From a virus (Duplodnaviria; Caudoviricetes): DNA of 50,029 nucleotides. Within the stretch, counting starts at the first letter, position 1. Every line of letters starts with the position of its first letter. The stretch covers positions 1 to 50,029 of IMG/VR virus record IMGVR_UViG_3300016471_000329; one strand, 5' to 3'. The translations under genes and the position numbers were made by a program. Below, one piece after another: positions 33,556 through 42,930 of this stretch. Under the pieces are notes generated by a model, which saw only the letters and a program-made list of their open reading frames with translations, was not told the origin of the DNA and ran no database searches.

Positions 33556-35421
33556 TCATCCCATCGACGCTCCCCACGTCTCACCTATCTCAACGTCCAC
33601 TACTGACGGTACTTCAAGCTGCACAGCATTAGCCATGATATGTGCGGCTTCTTCAGCCTCCTCACGCTTGTTCACAGACAGCGCAAGCTCATCATGTACT
33701 GAAAGTAGTAGGTCAAATCCCGCCTTATGAAGCTCGACCATGGCCTTCTTTGTTTGATCGGCAGCCGAACCTTGGATCAGTCGATTTAATCCTTTATAAG
33801 TCATGGCCCGTTTAATTCTTGGCCCATATTTAATGGACGCTTCCTCAAAAGGCAACGCCTTATTAATGCCCCACTCAATAGGTTCCCAAAGCGGGAAGCG
33901 GCATTTGCGACCCAAGAGTGTACGGATCGCGCCTCCTGAACCACGGTGCTCGATCCGACGCGTCACGGCATCCACAGTGCTACGCAAGAAGGGCACTTTT
34001 TGGTGAAAGGTTTTGATGAGTTCACTGGCCTCATCCAGAGGCATATCAAGCTGTTGAGCCATCTTTGCTTTTCCGGCGCTGTACATGATGGCCAGGGTAC
34101 ATGTCTTCGCAACCTTCCGTGGCACGTTCGCTGCGTCGGCTACGATCTGATAGAAGTCCGTTCTCGGGTTCTCTCGATAAGCCTTCACGACTTCGTCAGT
34201 ACCAGAAAGACCTAGTAAATGTGCGTAATGAATCAAGATCCTTGGTTCTTGAGACGAGAAGTCGTTTGCGGCCCATTTTTGACCCTGTTCCGGAAGGAAA
34301 AGCCCCCTGACTAATGGACCAAGAACCTCGTGTCTTGCGCTGACCTGTTGAAGATTGGGGTTGGCCATGGATAGCCGCCCTGTGACTGTGCCGCCATCGT
34401 CTGATCGAATCTGGTTGATGTGCGGGTGAATGCGGCCATCGTGCGCAGAGAAGTCTAAGTAAGGCTGCAAGAACGTGCCGTGGGTCTTGTTCAGTTCGCG
34501 CGCTTCAACGATTTGCTTGCAGATCGGATGTTCGTGCGTATCAAGAAAACTCTTGGTAAAGCTTGGCAGTCCGTTCGCGGTCCTTGGATAATGAATCCCA
34601 AGCTTGTCAAACCCTATAGCGATGCTGGCTGCGGCCCAGATATCCACGGGCGACCCGCAGGCTTTGCGAATGGCTTTGACCAGTTGAGCCTCTTTGTCTT
34701 GCATCTCGCTCACAAGCTTGGTCGCCCGATCGCGATCAAAGCGAATGCCCCGCTTGGTAATGCCAACCAGCACAGGCAAAAGTTCAGTCTCTAGATCAAA
34801 GATCGATTCAACTTCTTCCTTGCGTAAGACCGTCTTGAAGTGCTGCCAGAGCTTGAGCGTGAGCGCAGCATCTTGCTCGGCGTACTCGCCCACAAACATG
34901 GCAGGCAAGCGCCAGAGTTCTTTCTTGGCATGAACACCAAAGTCTTGTGCGGCTTCTTTTAATCCTTGCTCAGACTTAACCTCTTTGAGGTAATCGAAAC
35001 CGAGGGCATTAAGGGCGTAGCTGAATCGGTTTTCATCGATGCAAGCAGCAGCGACCATGGTGTCAATGATTTGACCCCGCACATTAAATCCAGAGGCGAG
35101 AAGCCATCCAAGATCGTAGGCGGCGTTGTGCATGACCTTGGGACATGGAAGGTCAAGCACACGTCGAATGAATCGCTCAACAATCCCACGGTCAAGGTTA
35201 CCTCCACCCTCATGAGCAACTGGGTAGTAACCTCGCCATCCTTCAACAGCAATGGCGTAGCCGACAATGTAACCGTCATTTCTTGGCCATCCGGGGCCGA
35301 ACCGTTCCATGTTTCTGTCGCACGTTTCCAGATCAATTGCGATCTCCTTGGCGTCAGACAGATCAGGAAAAGAGGCGGGAGGAACCCACTCGGAGGTGGG
35401 CGGAAATAGTGGTAGCGTCAC
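33556..35421 (-). CDS. polA: family A DNA polymerase with 3'-5' exonuclease domain
   Basis: Exo I DLET, Exo II HNAAYDL, Exo III YAEQDA; TVTGRLSMANPNLQQ; motif A DFSSQEPR; motif B R...K...L...Y; IQGSAAD; motif C VHDEL. Confidence 0.95.
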   Translation of the reverse strand: MTLPLFPPTSEWVPPASFPDLSDAKEIAIDLETCDRNMERFGPGWPRNDGYIVGYAIAVEGWRGYYPVAHEGGGNLDRGIVERFIRRVLDLPCPKVMHNAAYDLGWLLASGFNVRGQIIDTMVAAACIDENRFSYALNALGFDYLKEVKSEQGLKEAAQDFGVHAKKELWRLPAMFVGEYAEQDAALTLKLWQHFKTVLRKEEVESIFDLETELLPVLVGITKRGIRFDRDRATKLVSEMQDKEAQLVKAIRKACGSPVDIWAAASIAIGFDKLGIHYPRTANGLPSFTKSFLDTHEHPICKQIVEARELNKTHGTFLQPYLDFSAHDGRIHPHINQIRSDDGGTVTGRLSMANPNLQQVSARHEVLGPLVRGLFLPEQGQKWAANDFSSQEPRILIHYAHLLGLSGTDEVVKAYRENPRTDFYQIVADAANVPRKVAKTCTLAIMYSAGKAKMAQQLDMPLDEASELIKTFHQKVPFLRSTVDAVTRRIEHRGSGGAIRTLLGRKCRFPLWEPIEWGINKALPFEEASIKYGPRIKRAMTYKGLNRLIQGSAADQTKKAMVELHKAGFDLLLSVHDELALSVNKREEAEEAAHIMANAVQLEVPSVVDVEIGETWGASMG

Positions 35422-36923
35422 AGTCGAAAGCCTTTCTGGTTGCTGCGTGGCATGACCAAGTGCAGGTTTTTACGAGTGCGCGTGATACCAACATAGAGCA
35501 ACCGATTGATGTCATCAGGATTGGTGTCATAACTTTTTGCAAACTTGGTAGACAGGTCTGTCAAAAGTAGAACATTATCAGCTTCTCCACCTTTTGCGCC
35601 ATGGATCGTGGATAATTTTATCTTAGGTGCTGCATTTAATTTCACACCGCGTCGAAGTAAAGCAATGATGTACTGACGCTGGGCAGCGCTAATCTTGGTC
35701 AGTACTTCATGCCAGATGCCATCGGTGAGCAAGCCCCACTTGTTATGCAGATCCTTGATCGAGTACATTCGATCTTCAGGCGCTTGAGCCATAGTCTTAT
35801 AGCCTTTAGCTATGAGCGCTGCATCAAGATAGCCATAAACTATCTTAACAACAGAAAGAGGTACCTCGCCGCCCTTGCGCAGCATCTCCCAGCCGTACAC
35901 CGCTGCGAGCACCTTCTCGCCAATGCTCCGTTGTCCATGGCGCTCGAAAAGCAAGCCTTGGCTCTTGAGCCACTCAGGCAATTCGTCCAGCATGTAGTTT
36001 GCAGCGGCCATCACGAGCCACTCGCCATCGGTCATGTTGACCTGAGAGAAATGGTTATAGGTTTGGATGTTGCCTTGCTCATCACGGGCAGACCACTCCT
36101 TGGGCTGTCGATGTTGGATGCGTTTAACCACGCGCTCAGCAAGCGCATGAACCTTGGCAGGAATCCGATAAGACTTATCTAAAACCTTAACTTCGCCAGG
36201 GAAGGTAAGGAACGAATCAACATCAGCGCCTGCCCAGTTGTAAATCGCTTGATCGTCATCACCCGCTAGGTAAACACGCGTGGAGCGTTTGGCAAGATCC
36301 TTGACCAACTGCCACTGAAGGCGCGATAGATCTTGCGATTCATCCACGATCAGTGCATCAAGGCGCGGTAAGCGATTGGATTCTTGCACGATCAACTCAA
36401 GCAGATCGGTAAAGTCCAGCAGACCGTTCTCGCCTTTGTACTGACGATAGGCGCGCTCGACGTACTCAAAGTGAAACCACTCGATGTCCAACGAGGATTG
36501 GTTGTAATGGGTCTTCAGATCAAGGCCCTTGATCCGTGCAAGGTTGATCTCGTTCAGAATGGCGTTGTCTGCTCGCGCTACGAACCCATCAGTGTCGTTT
36601 TCTGTAGCGATCTCCAAGCCACAGCTTCTGCCAAACTCTTTGTAGTTCTCATCTTGCATCATCTCGCTCTTGTTAATCCCAAGGCAGCGAAAGGCCAGCG
36701 AATGAAGCGTCCTGAACCACGGGAAGTCCGTAGCAGGGTTCAGGTGTGGGAACTTCACGATCGCCCGATCACGCGCCTCGTTGGCCGCTTTGCGCGTGAA
36801 GGCAAAGTAGCCAATCTTGGTTGACGGCGTCTCCCTGGCTAGCTCACCTTGGACGACGTTTAATAGATATGTTGTTTTCCCCGTGCCCAGCTACGGCGGG
36901 CCGAAGACTTTGAGCGTGCTCAT
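35418..36923 (-). CDS. UvrD/Rep-like superfamily 1 helicase with an in-frame TAG in Walker A (recoded or pseudogene)
   Basis: ATG 36923: MSTLKVFGPP*LGTGKTTYLL...AFTRKAA...RTLHS...VDESQD...GDDDQAIY...SYR...STIHGAKGGEAD...YVGITR; all SF1 motifs otherwise intact. Confidence 0.85.
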
Positions 36924-36933
36924 CTTCGGCCCT

Positions 36934-37326
36934 TTACTCCTTTTCAGCATGCAAGTGAATCCGAATATGTTCGGACCTGGAAAGAACTTGCAGGTTTGAT
37001 ATGTCGTTATTCCATTTGTCTCCATCAATGTGATGGACGACCTCGCTGTAATCCAGTTTTCGTCCTAAGACTTTCTCCATAATCACGCGGTGCATGTGGC
37101 GCTGATTAAGCTTGACGTAATTATCACGCTTGCCGGTAAACCTGACTAGGTCGTGATTTCTAAAGGATGAGCGTCTGGCCTGTTCAGAAGAACTAAAAAG
37201 TCTGGCGTTATGCCCGTTTATGAACCGAAGCGGTTCGCCTTTTTTCTGGCCTCTTTCCGATCGTGTCCTGATTGCTATCGGAGTAGGCAGCCCGCAGCCG
37301 CACTCGCAAAGCTTCACGCTTTCCAT
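36934..37326 (-). CDS. free-standing HNH homing endonuclease
   Basis: CECGCG N-terminus; HRVIME..LGR.L...EVVHHIDGDKWNNDISNL...H...H; start MESVKL after AAGGGA SD. Confidence 0.88.
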   Translation of the reverse strand: MESVKLCECGCGLPTPIAIRTRSERGQKKGEPLRFINGHNARLFSSSEQARRSSFRNHDLVRFTGKRDNYVKLNQRHMHRVIMEKVLGRKLDYSEVVHHIDGDKWNNDISNLQVLSRSEHIRIHLHAEKE

Positions 37327-37411
37327 GTTTTGTCCCTTCGCAAAACGCCCTTTAAGTGAGATTGGCCAGACGGTAAAGGGAACCGTTTTTCGCTCCGTCG
37401 AGCTAGGCCAA
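37327..37411 (-). promoter_or_regulatory. structured leader of HNH gene
   Basis: three-way junction 37362-37411 plus GTTTTG/CAAAAC hairpin (37327-37346) enclosing the SD. Confidence 0.5.
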
Positions 37412-37427
37412 AATGAATAATACACCA

Positions 37428-38990
37428 TCAAAACGGACTCCCCTTCTTCGCAGTCGGCGTCTCAAAGGGTGCTTCTTGTTTCGGGAAGCACGGGATACGC
37501 CACACGCGTGTGGTGCGGCCCTTGAGAAACACGGGCAACGGCTCACCGCCTAGATCACGCAGCCGCTGGGCCATCTTCGGTGCGCTCAGGCCCTTGAAGT
37601 TATTGCGCGTGAGGTGATCCTCAAGATCCTTGATGCGGAAGTAAACCTTCTGATCCTCTTCATCCACCCAGGGCCTGCCCATGAGGATTTCATCACGGTC
37701 CATGGCTTGCTGGATGTGCGTGGTGAACTCCTCCAAGAGCGCTGTGAATCGCCCTGTGATGGTGGTGTCTTCGGATGCCTCTTGAATCTGCTCTAGCTCA
37801 ACCATCTCACGCAGTAAGGCGTTGAGCACTTGCTCCCAGTCTTGTTTGCGTAGCGTGGGCGGTAAGAGGTTGATCTTGTCCATGCACGCTTTTTGGAACG
37901 CCGCTTGGTTGTAGAGACTCTCCGTATCGAGCTCAACGCGCCTGCCGTTGATATCCAAGAACCATAATGGAGGCTCACTGTTGTACTTGGAGAGGGCAGA
38001 CATTTGAGGAGCATCAGGGCCATCGGCACCAACGCCAAACTTGCGAGTGCGACAAAGGCCAGCATTACAAAAAGAATTAATCGGCGCATCTTTACACTTG
38101 TACTTGTAATCTTTTTTGGTCAATTGCTTAACGATAACCTGCAACTCGCTCAATCCCAACGGGGGACCAAAGTACTTTTGATTGTGCTCGGCAAGCTTGT
38201 CTTCCCAGTTGTGCGCACCGGTGCGCTTGAGGTAGATGCCGATGTTGAAAAGGCCATTGTTCCTTGTGCCTTCAGGAAAGCCCTGTGAACACAGCGTCTG
38301 TAAGCAGGGCGGACCATCCTTGATGGGCTGCTCAGGCTTGGCAGGGGCCTCGGGTGCAACGAGTTGGTCTTGCACCGCATCGTCATACAAACGATAAAAC
38401 TCTTCAAGCGTAGCCGCCGTGCCATCGCTCTTGATGCCATAGCGCAGCGTTTCATCGCCGCCAAAGTAGGGTAGGTTTAAGAAGTTGCCCGTATCGCCAC
38501 GGTCAACAAGAATCTCGCTTTGTTTGGGGAAGATCTCTCTGCCTGACTCACCCAACAGGGCTGCACAAGCGGTGAGGTATTGACGCATGTCAGCGGCAGG
38601 GATCGGTTCCTTAGTGAATGCAAACACATGCGCGCCGCCTGATTTGCTGCGGCAAACGACAAGGGGCAGGTTCAGCGTCTTGATCTTCTCCACAACGCTG
38701 CGGTGATCAAGGGGATATTGATCAATATCAATACAGCCCCAAATGCAAGAATTATCAGCCCGGATAGGAATAATGCCAAGAGAAGGCTCAACACCTTCCA
38801 GATGCTTTTCCCAGAGCTCATCCACCGGTGGTTGTCTAACCACCACGGCCTTTCCCGCTTGCTTGCCATCTCCCCTCGCCTTCTCAATCCGGTAGGTTCC
38901 GTAGGCGATATCCAATCCCTCAAAGATCGCCTTGAAGCGTTTGATGTCAGTCATTTCTGGCTTTCTCACAACGGGGTACTCCCCGGTCAT
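37428..38990 (-). CDS. DNA primase (AEP-like with PriCT-like domain)
   Basis: WGCIDID, RSKSGGAHVF, GNFLNLPY, PPCL...EGTRNNGLF; no P-loop helicase domain; start may be MTDIKRF (38954). Confidence 0.75.
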   Translation of the reverse strand: MTGEYPVVRKPEMTDIKRFKAIFEGLDIAYGTYRIEKARGDGKQAGKAVVVRQPPVDELWEKHLEGVEPSLGIIPIRADNSCIWGCIDIDQYPLDHRSVVEKIKTLNLPLVVCRSKSGGAHVFAFTKEPIPAADMRQYLTACAALLGESGREIFPKQSEILVDRGDTGNFLNLPYFGGDETLRYGIKSDGTAATLEEFYRLYDDAVQDQLVAPEAPAKPEQPIKDGPPCLQTLCSQGFPEGTRNNGLFNIGIYLKRTGAHNWEDKLAEHNQKYFGPPLGLSELQVIVKQLTKKDYKYKCKDAPINSFCNAGLCRTRKFGVGADGPDAPQMSALSKYNSEPPLWFLDINGRRVELDTESLYNQAAFQKACMDKINLLPPTLRKQDWEQVLNALLREMVELEQIQEASEDTTITGRFTALLEEFTTHIQQAMDRDEILMGRPWVDEEDQKVYFRIKDLEDHLTRNNFKGLSAPKMAQRLRDLGGEPLPVFLKGRTTRVWRIPCFPKQEAPFETPTAKKGSPF

Positions 38991-39010: not shown

Positions 39011-39805
39011 TCAGAACGGGATATTAGCGTCTTGCACTTCTCCGGCCTCGGACTCATGCTTAACTTTCACTTCCCCACGACTTACAGACTCTGCAAACTG
39101 CTTTGCAGGCATGTAAACCGAGGCAATCTGCTCGGCTGGAATCGAGCCAATGCGCTCAACTTCCCAACCGTACCACTTGCCTTTGTCATTACTCTCAGCC
39201 GTGGTCGTCAGCCGATACATTTGGCTGTAGATGGGCGGGGTGTAAGGACCGTTTTTGCCCATCAGTTTGACGGACATCATCATGCTGTTCCACTTCCTGG
39301 ACTTCTTCAGTTGCGTGGACTTCATCACAATGAGTGCAGGGGTCGGGATACCTTCCTCATCCACCATCATCACGTAGTGATTAGCGGTGTTTTCGATGTA
39401 GTTCCCATTGTCCAGATAGTCCTTATTGTCGCCCGGAACGCGATTGGTGCGACTGAGGATATCGGACGTTGCCGGGTAGATCTGCACAGGCGCGCCCGAC
39501 GAACCGCTGCCACGCGGTGCCCACTCAATGTACTGCCGTACGTAGGCGGTCGGAACAACCACGATACCCTTCTTGCCGTCGAAGAGTTCCTTGGTTACTG
39601 TGTTGAAGATCATCCCAGGCATGGCCCCTTCAACAACACCGATCTCATCAGAGTTGTTGGTGAGAGCTTTTAGAAAAGGAAGCGCAAAGTCATCCTTGTT
39701 CATCTGCTCTAGGCCCGCTCCCGCATCGGCTTCAAAAGCATCGGCCAATGCAAGTGCGGTGCCTGTCGTCTTTACTGCTACTGCTGAAACATCTGCTTTT
39801 GCCAT
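39011..39805 (-). CDS. putative single-stranded DNA-binding protein
   Basis: DFALPFLK, YIEW.PR, MKSTQLKKSRKWNSMM, SNDKGKWYGW, acidic tail ending IPF. Confidence 0.7.
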   Translation of the reverse strand: MAKADVSAVAVKTTGTALALADAFEADAGAGLEQMNKDDFALPFLKALTNNSDEIGVVEGAMPGMIFNTVTKELFDGKKGIVVVPTAYVRQYIEWAPRGSGSSGAPVQIYPATSDILSRTNRVPGDNKDYLDNGNYIENTANHYVMMVDEEGIPTPALIVMKSTQLKKSRKWNSMMMSVKLMGKNGPYTPPIYSQMYRLTTTAESNDKGKWYGWEVERIGSIPAEQIASVYMPAKQFAESVSRGEVKVKHESEAGEVQDANIPF

Positions 39806-39841
39806 GATAATGGTCCTTGGTTCGTGATTAATGGTTCGTTA

Positions 39842-40390
39842 CTACGTTGATTTGATGCTGGCCTTGTTGCCGACGTACACACCGAAAAGTTCAGTAGGCA
39901 CTTCGCTTCCCTTGACTAGCATCTCCTTAACCCAAGCCTTGAGGGTTTGGGGTTCTATCTTCTGGCTCTGCTCGGCCATGTAGCCTTGCGTTGACAGTAG
40001 ATCCAGTAGACGAGCGCAAAGCTCATCTTCGCGACGGCCAAAACGCACCGTCACTGTGTTCTTGATGATGTCATCATAGCCACGCTCACGCAGCCAAGCA
40101 AAGGCCTCGGCCTGACGCTCCTTGCTGATGGTGGCGCTGTAAAACTGCTTGACCTCAATCTTACTGCCGTCCTCCATAGCAAAGCTTTTCAAGCCAAGCT
40201 CTGCAAAGGCCTCGGGCAGTGCTTCTTCGGTCAGCTTGCGGTAATTGCTTTGACGCTCGGACAAGGTTGTCTCCAACTCTAAGATTTCTTTTTCCAAGAG
40301 TTTGGCACGCTTGGCGAGTTGGGCAATACCGGCAAGCTTATCGTCACCAATGGTGAGCGCATCGGCATCTTGTTCAAACATATCACTCAT
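39842..40390 (-). CDS. conserved replication-module protein
   Basis: LPE...ELGLKSF..EDG...AFAWLRERGYDDIIKN.V...PQTLKAWVKE; start MSDMFEQ. Confidence 0.7.
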   Translation of the reverse strand: MSDMFEQDADALTIGDDKLAGIAQLAKRAKLLEKEILELETTLSERQSNYRKLTEEALPEAFAELGLKSFAMEDGSKIEVKQFYSATISKERQAEAFAWLRERGYDDIIKNTVTVRFGRREDELCARLLDLLSTQGYMAEQSQKIEPQTLKAWVKEMLVKGSEVPTELFGVYVGNKASIKST

Positions 40391-40715
40391 GGCTTTCTCC
40401 TTTCTGGGGGAACAAATCAACCTGGATGGGAATGTAACGCCTTTCAAGACGATCCCACTTAAGACATTTGTAGCGTCCGTTGTTCTTGGATGCTGCAACG
40501 GCACTTACGATACCGATCGCCGTGGGGTCACCAATGAAAAGCAAGTAATCGTTGTCGGTGAAGTTCTCAAGCTTTCGCTGCACACGAGCAACGGTGGGGG
40601 CAACGCTAAACGCAATTTGCACATTGTTTGGCAGGATCACTTCGATCGCACCAAAATCTAATGCAGACGAGATGTTGTGTTGCCCCGTTTCAGTAACGGC
40701 ATAGACTTTAGCCAA
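40383..40715 (-). CDS. conserved hypothetical protein
   Basis: KVYAV.E...NISSA..FG...DYLL.IGDP...LKWDR...Y; GAAAGGAG SD. Confidence 0.7.
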   Translation of the reverse strand: MAKVYAVTETGQHNISSALDFGAIEVILPNNVQIAFSVAPTVARVQRKLENFTDNDYLLFIGDPTAIGIVSAVAASKNNGRYKCLKWDRLERRYIPIQVDLFPQKGESHE

Positions 40716-40745
40716 CGCCTTTCTCCTTTCTCAAATCGAAAACCG

Positions 40746-40780
40746 AGTGTACACTTCGATTTCAGGACATGCAAGTCCTG
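40746..40780 (-). promoter_or_regulatory. promoter of replication operon in divergent intergenic region
   Basis: TTGCAT-17 bp-TACACT; -10 lies in palindrome AGTGTACACT; CAGGAC/GTCCTG inverted repeat flanks the -35. Confidence 0.65.
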
Positions 40781-40792
40781 CAAGAAAGGAGA

Positions 40793-42250
40793 ATGATGGA
40801 AGAGCAATATTTAGCGAATTACCCGTATCGCAACAAACCCTTCGCACATCAGCAAGCGTACCTTGAGCGGTTCTGGCGCAAGCCTCTTGCAGCGCTCTTT
40901 GCTGACATGGGCACAGGCAAAAGTTATATGTTAATCAATAACTTAGCGATGCTCTATGACAATGGCGAAGTCAACGCTGCGGTGATCGTAGCGCCCAAGG
41001 GCGTCTACAGAAACTGGATCGATATAGAAATCCCAAAGCACATGCCAGCGCACGTGGTTTACCGCGCAGCACTGTGGACGCCTTCACCGCGCAAGGCTGA
41101 GAAGGCTGCACTAGATTCCATTTTTGAAGTCACTGAGGATTTAAAAATTCTCGTGATGAATGTTGAAGCGTTCTCAACGGATAAGGGCAAGCTCTTTGCG
41201 CAGCGCTTTGTCTTGTCGCACACGGTACTGATGGCGGTTGATGAAAGCACGACCATCAAAACGCATACCGCTGCAAGGACCAAGAACATTACAAAGGTTG
41301 GAAGACTTGCTCGCTTTCGCCGGATCATGACTGGATCGCCTGTGACCAAGACGCCGATGGATCTGTTCTCACAGTGCAATTTCCTGTCTGCCGATTGCCT
41401 GGGTACGGATAGTTTTTATGCGTTCCAATCGCGATTTGCCGTGGTAATCGAGCGCCGTGTTGCAACGCACGCTTTTAAGCAGGTCATTGGATATCAGCGG
41501 CTCTCTGAATTGCAAATGATCGTAAGCCGTTTTAGCTTCAGAGTCACCAAAGAAGAGTGCCTTGATTTGCCTGAGAAGCTTTTTGTGCGGCGCGACGTTG
41601 ATCTAACCGATGAGCAGGCGCTTGCCTATAATCAGATGAAAGCCATGGCGCTTGCACAGTTCTCCACAGGCACGGTGTCCACGGTCAACGCGCTCACGCA
41701 ACTGATGCGACTGCACCAGATCGTATGCGGTTTCGTGAAGCTTGATGATGGCACCATACAAGAGTTGCCTAACAACCGCATTCAAGAGCTGCTCAGTGTC
41801 ATCGAGGAGACGGGAGGCAAGGTCATCATTTGGGCGACCTATCGACACAACATCGAGGCCATTCATCTTGCACTGCAAAAAGCGTATGGCATGGATTCGG
41901 TAGGCGTTTATTACGGTGACACGAAGCTTGATGAGCGTCAGCGCGTGATTGAAAAGTTCCAGGATCCAAGCTCCCCGATGCGATTCTTTGTGGGCAACCC
42001 GCAGACAGGCGGCTACGGGATCACACTCACAGCGGCAAGTGTCGTTGTCTATTACAGCAACAGTTTTGATTTAGAAAAACGATTGCAGTCTGAGGATCGT
42101 GCTCACCGGATAGGTCAAGTCAACAAGGTGACTTACGTTGACTTGATATCACCCAAGACGATTGATGAGAAGATCGTCAAAGCCTTGCGCGATAAGATTG
42201 ATATTGCAACCCAAGTCCTTGGCGAGGAACTTAAACAATGGCTCATCTGA
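40793..42250 (+). CDS. SNF2-family (SF2) helicase/ATPase
   Basis: PFAHQ, DMGTGKS, VDES, MTGSP, LHQI, KVIIWA, GGYGITLT, QSEDRAHRIGQ; AAAGGAG SD before ATG 40793. Confidence 0.9.
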   Translation: MMEEQYLANYPYRNKPFAHQQAYLERFWRKPLAALFADMGTGKSYMLINNLAMLYDNGEVNAAVIVAPKGVYRNWIDIEIPKHMPAHVVYRAALWTPSPRKAEKAALDSIFEVTEDLKILVMNVEAFSTDKGKLFAQRFVLSHTVLMAVDESTTIKTHTAARTKNITKVGRLARFRRIMTGSPVTKTPMDLFSQCNFLSADCLGTDSFYAFQSRFAVVIERRVATHAFKQVIGYQRLSELQMIVSRFSFRVTKEECLDLPEKLFVRRDVDLTDEQALAYNQMKAMALAQFSTGTVSTVNALTQLMRLHQIVCGFVKLDDGTIQELPNNRIQELLSVIEETGGKVIIWATYRHNIEAIHLALQKAYGMDSVGVYYGDTKLDERQRVIEKFQDPSSPMRFFVGNPQTGGYGITLTAASVVVYYSNSFDLEKRLQSEDRAHRIGQVNKVTYVDLISPKTIDEKIVKALRDKIDIATQVLGEELKQWLI

Positions 42251-42930
42251 TTCCAATCCGCGAGAAGTATCACTATGAAAAGCTTGCTCGTCATGACGGC
42301 GAAGGCGGTCGCACATATGGTGATCAAAAGTTACCCAGCGTGACCCGCATTCTTGACTCCACTAGGGATAAAGCCAAGATTGACGAGTGGGTGCAGCGGG
42401 TTGGCAAAGAGGAGGCCGAGCGCATCAAGACGACCGCCGCCACGATCGGCACGCACATGCACAGCGTGATTGAGCACATGATTGCGGGGCAGGACTTGCC
42501 TGCTCCTTACACGCAGGAAGCGATCAAGGGCTACGAGATGGGCTATCGCCTGATCAGCGAGCAGTTTGCGCATATCACAGAAGTATGGGGCTCGGAGGTT
42601 ACTCTGTATATTCCGAATCGCTATGCAGGGACCACGGACATGGTGGGCCTGTATAAAGGGAAACCCGCGATCATCGACTTTAAGCAGTCCAATAAACCGA
42701 AGCGTCATGAGTGGATCACGGACTACTTCCACCAGTTGTCCGCCTACGCGCTAGCGCACGACTACCAGTTTGGCACCGAGATTGAGATGGGCGTGGTGAT
42801 GATGGCGATGCAATCCGGTGGTACGCAGGTATTCACGACCACCGGACGGGAGTTCAGCCAATACAAGACAGGCTGGCTTGAGCGGGTAGAGGGGTTCTAC
42901 CGTAACACTGCGTCAAAGGGGAAAAGCTGA
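42238..42930 (+). CDS. PD-(D/E)XK exonuclease (Cas4/lambda-exo-like)
   Basis: LPSVTRIL, GT.MH..IE, E...YAGTTD...IIDFKQ, QLSAYA. Confidence 0.85.
   Translation: MAHLIPIREKYHYEKLARHDGEGGRTYGDQKLPSVTRILDSTRDKAKIDEWVQRVGKEEAERIKTTAATIGTHMHSVIEHMIAGQDLPAPYTQEAIKGYEMGYRLISEQFAHITEVWGSEVTLYIPNRYAGTTDMVGLYKGKPAIIDFKQSNKPKRHEWITDYFHQLSAYALAHDYQFGTEIEMGVVMMAMQSGGTQVFTTTGREFSQYKTGWLERVEGFYRNTASKGKS

Follow-up and report, generated by a model that had tools for sequence, protein, structure and literature searches.

A helicase gene interrupted within Walker A

The 50-kb linear virus record IMGVR_UViG_3300016471_000329 of the class Caudoviricetes (50,029 nucleotides (nt), analyzed over its full length and henceforth called the window), which is estimated to be 82% complete (CheckV) and is best matched by sequencing runs of freshwater origin, encodes on its minus strand a UvrD-like helicase whose Walker A motif is interrupted by six nt that begin with a stop codon. 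Read from ATG 36923, this gene specifies M-S-T-L-K-V-F-G-P-P, followed by TAG (36893-36891), CTG (36890-36888) and 489 open codons that run to position 35418 with no further stop. Three parts can be distinguished, all on the minus strand: the first open reading frame (ORF), ORF1 (36894..36923, 10 codons), which encodes a beta-strand and the G-P-P of Walker A and ends in the predicted take-off codon CCG (36896-36894); a 6-nt coding gap (36888..36893), defined by the sequence and by its recurrence in relatives and composed of TAG and the predicted landing codon CTG; and ORF2 (35418..36887, 489 codons), which begins with G-T-G-K-T and encodes a UvrD/Rep-like helicase of superfamily 1 (SF1). The downstream frame matches UvrD-helicase and UvrD_C in Pfam and PcrA, Rep and UvrD in the PDB, and possesses motifs I-VI and the UvrD domains of the UvrD/Rep/PcrA (SF1A) helicases, motif I being present only when the gap is skipped; once it is skipped, the two segments make up one conserved protein.

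The first-pass annotation of this DNA, which was made from the sequence alone, had read the site as GPP-stop-Leu-GTGKT and had noted no other lesion downstream. The former reading is borne out by the window, by independent assemblies and by other phages, and the latter by the uninterrupted 489 codons and the Pfam and PDB helicase matches. Contigs from the sequencing runs X1 and X2 (both possibly the source of the window), X3 and X9 span the insert without gaps and with the six bases unchanged; X3, which comes from the same study as X1 and X2, and X9, which comes from another study, show 0 differences from the window over positions 35740-37563 and 36836-36934, respectively, confirming the presence of TAGCTG. 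A contig from an RNA run, X15 (36816-36900), also spans the gap ungapped, extending only 7 nt beyond it; neither strand nor level can be read from such contigs. Besides ATG 36923, the window contains a second in-frame ATG at 36950. In the related locus L266 the upstream ATG does not share the helicase frame, and in L245 the position of 36923 is occupied by ACG; therefore, the start site varies between alleles.

Recurrence and variation of the insert

The annotation had anticipated that the insertion would recur in related phages, and this proved to be the case. The pattern G-P-P-TRR-NNN-G-[ST]-G-K-T, in which NNN was left free, was searched and a helicase profile was then applied to the matches, with the result that 43 of the 43 viral matches, 4 of the 40 matches in genomes and 71 of the at least 120 metagenomic matches were identified as helicases. 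In total, the insert is found in at least 118 matches to phage UvrD-like helicases (near-duplicates across collections included), which represent at least 85 distinct elements in helicases with identity down to ~25-40%. Among the 118 helicase matches listed, the TRR codon is TAG in 52, TAA in 38, TGA in 27 and TGG in one, so that a stop directly follows the take-off codon in 117, and the next codon conforms to C-Y-N in 111; by comparison, the 85 non-helicase matches listed include 8 with C-Y-N and 40 with TGG. When the stop position was freed, 48 viral matches were obtained, of which the 43 with a stop are all helicases and the five with a sense codon are not. In a set of 80 viral homologues (75 with the 5' end), the intact motif, G-P-P-G-[ST]-G-K-T, is present in 69 of the 75, and the remaining six have a stop and one codon at this site.

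The codon that follows the stop was predicted to re-pair with tRNA-Pro, and the family agrees with this prediction: across the 85 distinct elements, positions 1-2 of the landing codon pair with the Pro anticodon by Watson-Crick pairs in 33 and with the help of G.U in 50, two being mismatched. Exact or synonymous Pro landing codons make up a minority of the elements, and the third bases of the take-off and landing codons belong to the same purine or pyrimidine class in 78 of 85. The gap is not invariably six nt long. A scan that covered GGC alone as the Gly codon identified, at the same site and combined with the hairpin described below and a long helicase frame, gaps of 7 nt (L301, L321, L330), 8 nt (L313, L298) and 13 nt (L284); six of the 11 viral matches with gaps of other than 6 nt were dropped as non-helicases. 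The triplets ahead of the resume Gly codon in these out-of-frame gaps are CCT, CCG, TCG and ACA, the last of these being the end of the 13-nt gap of L284 (1480-1501), which has no Pro match and is followed by an intact frame.

These variants bear on the explanation that the stop is simply read through, or has been reassigned, so that the helicase would gain two residues within its P-loop. Such an explanation is consistent with the in-frame 6-nt form and with one helicase, L221, that carries TGG instead of the stop; against this, all three stops are used, a sense-codon version is found in none of the 43 viral helicases, and the 7-, 8- and 13-nt gaps, which start with a stop, are out of frame, so that readthrough is excluded as the shared mechanism. 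In the window, TAG terminates 7 of the 28 long minus-strand frames and no tRNA gene is present, in agreement with the annotation, which had considered reassignment of TAG unlikely; reassignment and suppression by a tRNA were both discarded on account of this stop usage, the three stops of the family and the missing tRNA gene. Taken as a whole, readthrough or reassignment appears exceedingly improbable. The L221 locus (1740-1830) retains an SD-like (Shine-Dalgarno-like) stretch and a weak stem and might represent either a sense-codon hop or a tolerated two-residue insertion.

Several other loci are of interest in their own right. The helicase with the 8-nt gap in L298 (1518-3029) shows a weak intein-splicing match at about residues 417-480; the frames of L093 and L102, at 823 and 838 amino acids (aa), are unusually long and possibly contain inteins; and in L093 a gene of the Mom family of DNA modification proteins (1856-2458) is located immediately upstream of the insert allele. 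No cultured model was found: Walker A is intact in each of the six homologues inspected among 120 GenBank phage matches, namely DSL-LC04, 023Pt_psg01, ct3Et533, Pan1, R26L and HTVC027P. A blastn search with the element returned chance matches only, and the single other Pro-stop-CYN match in the window has neither a hairpin nor a matching gene context. The four helicase matches among the 40 from genomes lie on short contigs of metagenome-assembled genomes labeled Bryobacteraceae, Anaerolineaceae, Elusimicrobia and Gemmataceae, labels too mixed to name a host.

Selection on the helicase

The frame beyond the gap is under purifying selection, as the annotation had proposed: the ratio of nonsynonymous to synonymous substitution rates (dN/dS) of the window helicase is 0.054-0.099 against 10 relatives, and the SF1 motifs are retained in 60-67 of the 67 full-length insert alleles. 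A dead gene or an assembly artefact would find some encouragement in three distinct insert alleles (L124, identical to L190 and L250; L187; L239) that contain another early stop; set against the independent runs, the 85 distinct elements, the purifying selection and the covarying signals, it merits hardly any credence. Separately, the identity of the window helicase to L001, L002 and L003 drops to 71-77% in the region 35700-35900, within flanks of 85-98% identity, which marks a recombined patch.

The upstream hairpin and the Shine-Dalgarno signal

A stem-loop with arms 36932-36922 and 36908-36898 (36898..36932, minus strand) ends one base before the take-off codon of the window, and an SD-like AAGGAG (36937..36942, minus strand), recognized in the sequence and conserved in insert alleles, is situated at the base of this hairpin. 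The predicted stability of the stem-loop is -21.4 kcal/mol (z = -4.8), with none of 200 shuffled sequences being equally stable. In insert alleles generally, the 3' arm of the inverted repeat consists of the [IV]-F-G-P codons and extends as far as the take-off Pro codon, and the hairpin is 8-14 base pairs long across the family. Stems of at least 8 base pairs are found in 90 of 96 insert contexts vs 2 of 55 intact ones. In 89 of the 96 insert contexts, and in none of the 55 intact ones, an SD-like duplex (<= -5 kcal/mol) lies no more than 14 nt upstream of the stem. In an alignment of 30 elements, the rows of which were picked to have loops of comparable length and the structure of which was taken from one row, 93% of the cells are paired and six of the 12 pairs show compensatory change, values reached by 0-3 of 500 shuffles; shuffled and slid controls fall far below the observed pairing, although shuffling leaves relatedness in place. 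In this alignment (A2) the window row is out of register, so that it is counted against pairing.

The spacing of these signals is constrained. In 60 of 81 elements, 4-5 nt separate the end of the GGAG core from the base that pairs with the first base of the first Pro codon, while the stem-loop spans 23-59 nt. An in-frame start is present upstream in 86 of 87 elements, with x-[KR]-[IV]-F-G-P-P retained as in intact alleles, and ORF1 comprises 9-55 codons (median ~20). In 59 of 87, the nearest start codon precedes the stem and, therefore, the SD frequently falls within ORF1. The AAGGAG that the annotation had placed upstream of the helicase ATG does exist at 36942-36937, but it is 13 nt from this ATG and is better read as a part of the recoding signal. 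The annotation had also considered a small hairpin around the stop, and this idea did not hold up: at -9.1 kcal/mol, this hairpin shares bases with the stronger upstream one, and it is not conserved, the family median being -4.3 vs -2.5 kcal/mol in intact alleles. The conserved stimulator is the upstream hairpin together with the SD.

Two further explanations draw on this hairpin. Removal of the six bases from the RNA, by a jump of the polymerase or a splicing-like excision, followed by ordinary translation, would be compatible with the variable gap lengths, and RNA polymerase could respond to the strong hairpin that immediately precedes the site. The RNA-run contigs examined contain no 6-nt deletion, which is a weak test; such removal seems very unlikely. 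Alternatively, the SD and the hairpin might together act as a split ribosome-binding site at which translation starts anew at the codon after the stop, producing a helicase that lacks its first strand and is perhaps complemented by the ORF1 peptide. In the 118 helicase matches listed, the codon behind the stop is CTG or TTG in 29, as fits such initiation, and CCA, CCG, CCT, CTA or CTT, which are not start codons, in 83; moreover, ORF1 retains its in-frame start and its beta-strand and G-P-P residues. A P-loop cut mid-way is unlikely to be compatible with ATP binding. Thus, re-initiation is highly improbable, notwithstanding a geometry that resembles that of T4 genes 25 and 38, as far as the latter is described in the relevant part of the source (PMC3014915).

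The upstream endonuclease and the mobile block

Immediately upstream of the helicase is a gene for a free-standing HNH endonuclease (36934..37431, minus strand; Pfam HNH_3, E 5.9e-14), the longest frame of which comprises 165 aa and the start of which, to judge by an SD-like stretch, is probably ATG 37326 (~130 aa). As the annotation had stated, it ends (stop at 36934) 10 nt ahead of the helicase ATG 36923. The proposed co-occurrence of endonuclease and insert is substantiated in one direction only: with HNH profiles derived from insert loci, an HNH gene was detected upstream in 46 of 95 insert contexts (37 of the HNH_3 type and 9 of a second type) and in none of the 51 intact contexts, but about half of the insert alleles are HNH-less. 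A Pfam check confirmed the first type, matched the second weakly and detected nothing in the 21 ORFs upstream of intact alleles, and in a separate, unbiased set of homologues an HNH gene accompanies two of two insert alleles vs one of 75 intact ones. Upstream of another insert allele (L114:2549-3202, minus strand), there is a weak match to LAGLIDADG_3 (E 8e-4, below the cut-off), possibly another type of endonuclease.

The limits of the mobile unit emerge from the comparison of L001, which contains the block, with L002, which does not. The helicases of the two are 99.2% identical and the flanks are 93-100% identical per 100 columns, with a drop to 89% in the bin that contains the 5' end of the helicase gene. 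The L001 block extends from the primase stop to about helicase codon 20 and is 97-100% identical to that of the window, whereas the helicase bodies of the two are more diverged (synonymous divergence, dS, 0.41). From the alignment of L001, L002 and the window, the block is placed at approximately 36860..37432 (minus strand) and comprises a spacer, the HNH gene and a replacement helicase 5' end with the recoding element, such that ~55 nt of the helicase 5' end are swapped for diverged DNA. The ~100-nt spacer (37327-37431, minus strand), which separates the primase stop from the likely HNH start, is identical in L001 and may carry expression signals of the HNH gene. Close relatives also contain HNH-less junctions (X4, X16), and L245 retains the element without the HNH gene. 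The traits of a homing cassette are thus apparent, namely an endonuclease that is absent from a near-identical empty allele (L001 vs L002) and a patchy distribution.

A second gene family with the same kind of element

Relaxing the first Pro of the pattern yielded 18 viral matches, of which 17 lie in a small gene of the AAA_33 kinase-like type that AT-rich phages carry (616 matches in GenBank phages). Here too, Pro, stop and C-Y-N follow a hairpin; an A-rich tract is present and there is no SD. The homologues include 10 distinct loci with the 6-nt form and one with a 7-nt form, and a divergent NUMOD3/TnsA-like endonuclease is encoded upstream in 10 of these 11 loci (one match being weak) vs 0 of 41 intact ones. 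Putative hosts among Bacteroidia, described as SD-blind, would explain the absence of the SD. The element loci are L338-L355 (not L343), L441 and L502, and the neighbors in L338 include an RNA ligase.

Gene neighborhood

The minus-strand order of genes in the window is primase, HNH_3 endonuclease, UvrD-like helicase and family A polymerase. The AEP-type primase (37428..38990, minus strand; Pfam AEP-TOTE, E 1e-13) forms the upstream flank, its stop marking the left end of the cassette in the alignment with L001, L002 and L003, and the family A DNA polymerase (33556..35421, minus strand; Pfam DNA_pol_A, E 2e-55) is the downstream flank of the replication module. Farther away (39011-42930), the minus strand carries genes resembling gp32, gp33 and gp34 of Pam3, and the plus strand encodes a divergent SNF2 helicase (40769-42250; Pfam) along with a weakly matched PD-(D/E)XK gene. 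According to the relevant part of a published survey, UvrD-like helicases often adjoin one group of PolA together with an SNF2 helicase (PMC6302109), and the window, with UvrD-like and SNF2 helicases near PolA, matches this neighborhood. The annotation had suggested that the interrupted helicase may be needed by the phage; with the SNF2 gene present, it is not the only helicase, although UvrD is encoded only once in the 82%-complete record.

A probable programmed hop, proposed to have spread by homing

ORF1, the Pro codon, the stop, the C-Y-N codon, the resume Gly codon, the hairpin and the SD are conserved together. The reading that we consider likely is a programmed hop of peptidyl-tRNA-Pro over the six bases, which would restore the normal G-P-P-G-T-G-K-T, in an insert that has spread with the upstream HNH gene as a protective homing cassette. 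Of its two components, the hop itself is very likely to take place, judging by the conserved sequence signals, and, if it does, an origin in homing immunity is nearly as well favored. After translating ORF1, the ribosome would pause with Pro-Pro-tRNA in the P site and the stop in the A site. Termination after proline is slow. The stem could zip to its base only after the ribosome has advanced, and its refolding may pull the ribosome forward, as has been proposed for T4 gene 60 in the portions of the sources that deal with it (PMC5009743, bioRxiv 2024.12.09.627546). With the stem looped out, the SD would be ~8-11 nt (11 in the window) from the landing codon, a geometry like that of T4 genes 25 and 38, and would fix the re-pairing of the tRNA; CUG would pair with the Pro anticodon via one G.U wobble. 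In mixed infections, the HNH endonuclease would nick intact alleles at or close to the conserved codons of Walker A, and repair would copy the HNH gene, the replacement 5' end and the insert, after which the HNH gene could decay while the element stays.

A number of points weigh against this reading. The helicase counts are inflated by near-duplicates, and the HNH profiles come from the very loci that they were used to compare. No HNH gene is present in the upstream DNA examined for 49 of the 95 insert alleles, and one intact allele, L370, has an HNH gene within 900 nt, albeit one that encodes a different-looking protein of 181 aa and is one gene away. The tree (FastTree; 122 of 128 sequences, >= 400 aa) came with long-branch warnings; it implies 16 state changes of the insert, nine of them forced by well-supported branches, with gain and loss indistinguishable, and in independent tree pairs HNH never opposes the insert, yet the association is non-significant (9 pairs, median p 0.06; underpowered). 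The diverged ~55 nt could confer immunity without the insert. Median dN/dS is 0.149 in 25 insert-insert pairs vs 0.083 in 141 intact pairs, which are unmatched for clade and distance, and the three alleles with a further early stop belong here as well. The landing triplets CAC (L187), GCG (L276) and ACA (L284) pair poorly, and the kinase-like elements demonstrate that the SD is not universal.

Some of these points can be accommodated by an alternative in which hopping does occur but the insert persists because it limits or tunes the output of the helicase, for example by sensing release factor, tRNA-Pro or EF-P, the link to endonucleases being due to hitch-hiking and immunity to the flanking changes. 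The persistence of the element with intact signals in the HNH-less alleles, its dominance in whole deep clades (in a pattern-selected set) and the divergence of the 5' end within the block from intact alleles fit such a regulatory role. This alternative is nevertheless unlikely: near-identical phages lack the element (L002, L014), 69 of 75 and 75 of 77 homologues in the two sets are intact, and an unrelated gene has the same element beside a different endonuclease; furthermore, the bypass of the mobA/gene 60 system was likewise kept after loss of the endonuclease, according to the pertinent part of the source (bioRxiv 2022.08.31.505936).

The broader proposition of a widespread, portable class of minimal "Pro stop-hop" elements is somewhat favored: unrelated free-standing endonucleases (two HNH types and the NUMOD3/TnsA-like type) that target Walker A codons in NTPase genes of phages would bring along a hairpin-Pro-stop-CYN unit, rendering the DNA uncuttable and leaving the protein unchanged. 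In hosts that use SD signals, the SD and the looped-out hairpin would set the landing codon in the P site in the manner of an initiation site. These observations suggest that bypass cassettes are a recurrent solution to the immunity problem of homing endonucleases and that gene callers cut such helicases and kinases short ahead of Walker A.

Comparison with known bypassing systems

To our knowledge, natural bypassing in bacteria is confined to T4 gene 60 with its homologues and the Hau3 terminase; no bypass in a helicase or in a Walker A motif was found in the main texts of the open-licence PMC and bioRxiv literature. The mobA/gene 60 system, so far as the relevant portions of the sources describe it, shares with the helicase element a free-standing HNH gene upstream of a replacement 5' end, a stop-containing gap and a conserved replication gene (bioRxiv 2022.08.31.505936, 2024.12.09.627546), as well as a stop after the take-off codon, a 5' stem-loop and SD-type help in landing (bioRxiv 2022.08.31.505936, 2024.12.09.627546); in both cases, the distribution is patchy, with near-identical empty alleles, and the endonuclease has been lost while the bypass was kept (bioRxiv 2022.08.31.505936). 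The differences are equally clear. The gap is 50 nt in T4 gene 60 and 20-50 nt in its homologues vs 6 nt, in frame, in the helicase element (7-13 nt in variants), and the gene 60 class uses matched Gly or Asp codons whereas the helicase element takes off from Pro and often lands with a G.U mismatch. Unlike gene 60, the helicase element has an ORF1 that, at 9-55 codons, is often too short for an exit-tunnel signal of the KKYK type, and it lacks a conserved A-site hairpin comparable to the take-off/A-site stem-loop of gene 60. The distance from stem to take-off codon is 0-1 nt vs 9 nt in gene 60, and a strong SD located 5' of the stem contrasts with the mini-SD inside the gene 60 gap. The host gene is an unsplit helicase or kinase interrupted at Walker A, as opposed to the split large subunit of topoisomerase (CTE/NTE) in gene 60, and three kinds of endonucleases accompany Pro-stop elements, that of the window lying between primase and helicase. 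MobA is an HNH protein of 269-279 aa and the HNH_3 protein of the window has ~130-165 aa, a comparison of size only. Gene, codons, gap length and signals all differ, and the helicase element is accordingly not a member of the mobA/gene 60 class in the strict sense.

The other systems can be compared to the extent that the consulted portions of the respective sources cover them. In the terminase of the Streptomyces phage Hau3, an ATPase whose gene contains two 10-nt inserts, the gap is likewise short; an internal SD precedes it and local stem-loops have been proposed as signals (PMC10732093, PMC5009743). Bypassing of it was detected in E. coli by mass spectrometry when UAA took the place of UUA (PMC10732093). 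Unlike in the helicase element, the trigger is a rare sense codon, UUA, the gap is out of frame and the proposed role is regulatory, and the portions consulted mention no link to an endonuclease (PMC10732093, PMC5009743). Synthetic stop-hops in E. coli, in which 9 nt are decoded as one amino acid, have the same geometry of codon, stop and matching codon, but are low-level, lack stimulators and are limited to constructs (PMC5009743). T4 genes 25 and 38 are similar in that a hairpin between the SD and the P-site codon creates a working distance of 5 and 11 nt (PMC3014915), and dissimilar in that this serves initiation at AUG rather than repositioning of an elongating ribosome. The byps of Magnusiomyces mitochondria resemble the helicase element in their short skipped inserts and imperfect matches between take-off and landing sites, and differ in that they involve an unused codon and relaxed mitochondrial ribosomes, are described as independent of mRNA context and are not found in phages (PMC5009743).

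In the part of a 2016 review that bears on the matter, no natural in-frame stop-hop is known (PMC5009743), and the corresponding part of a 2024 preprint names the events at the mRNA exit as the chief question about gene 60 bypassing that still awaits an answer (bioRxiv 2024.12.09.627546). With an element shorter than 60 nt and at least 85 natural variants of stem, loop, stop, landing codon and gap, the models of the hairpin as forward driver and of the SD as landing aid become testable. On the strength of the sequence comparisons, the helicase element appears as a variant of programmed bypassing that is tied to homing endonucleases and is new in the kind of element; should the broader proposition of a portable class hold, nature would here be using in-frame stop-hops for the first time on record, as a self-erasing insertion strategy beside those of introns and inteins.

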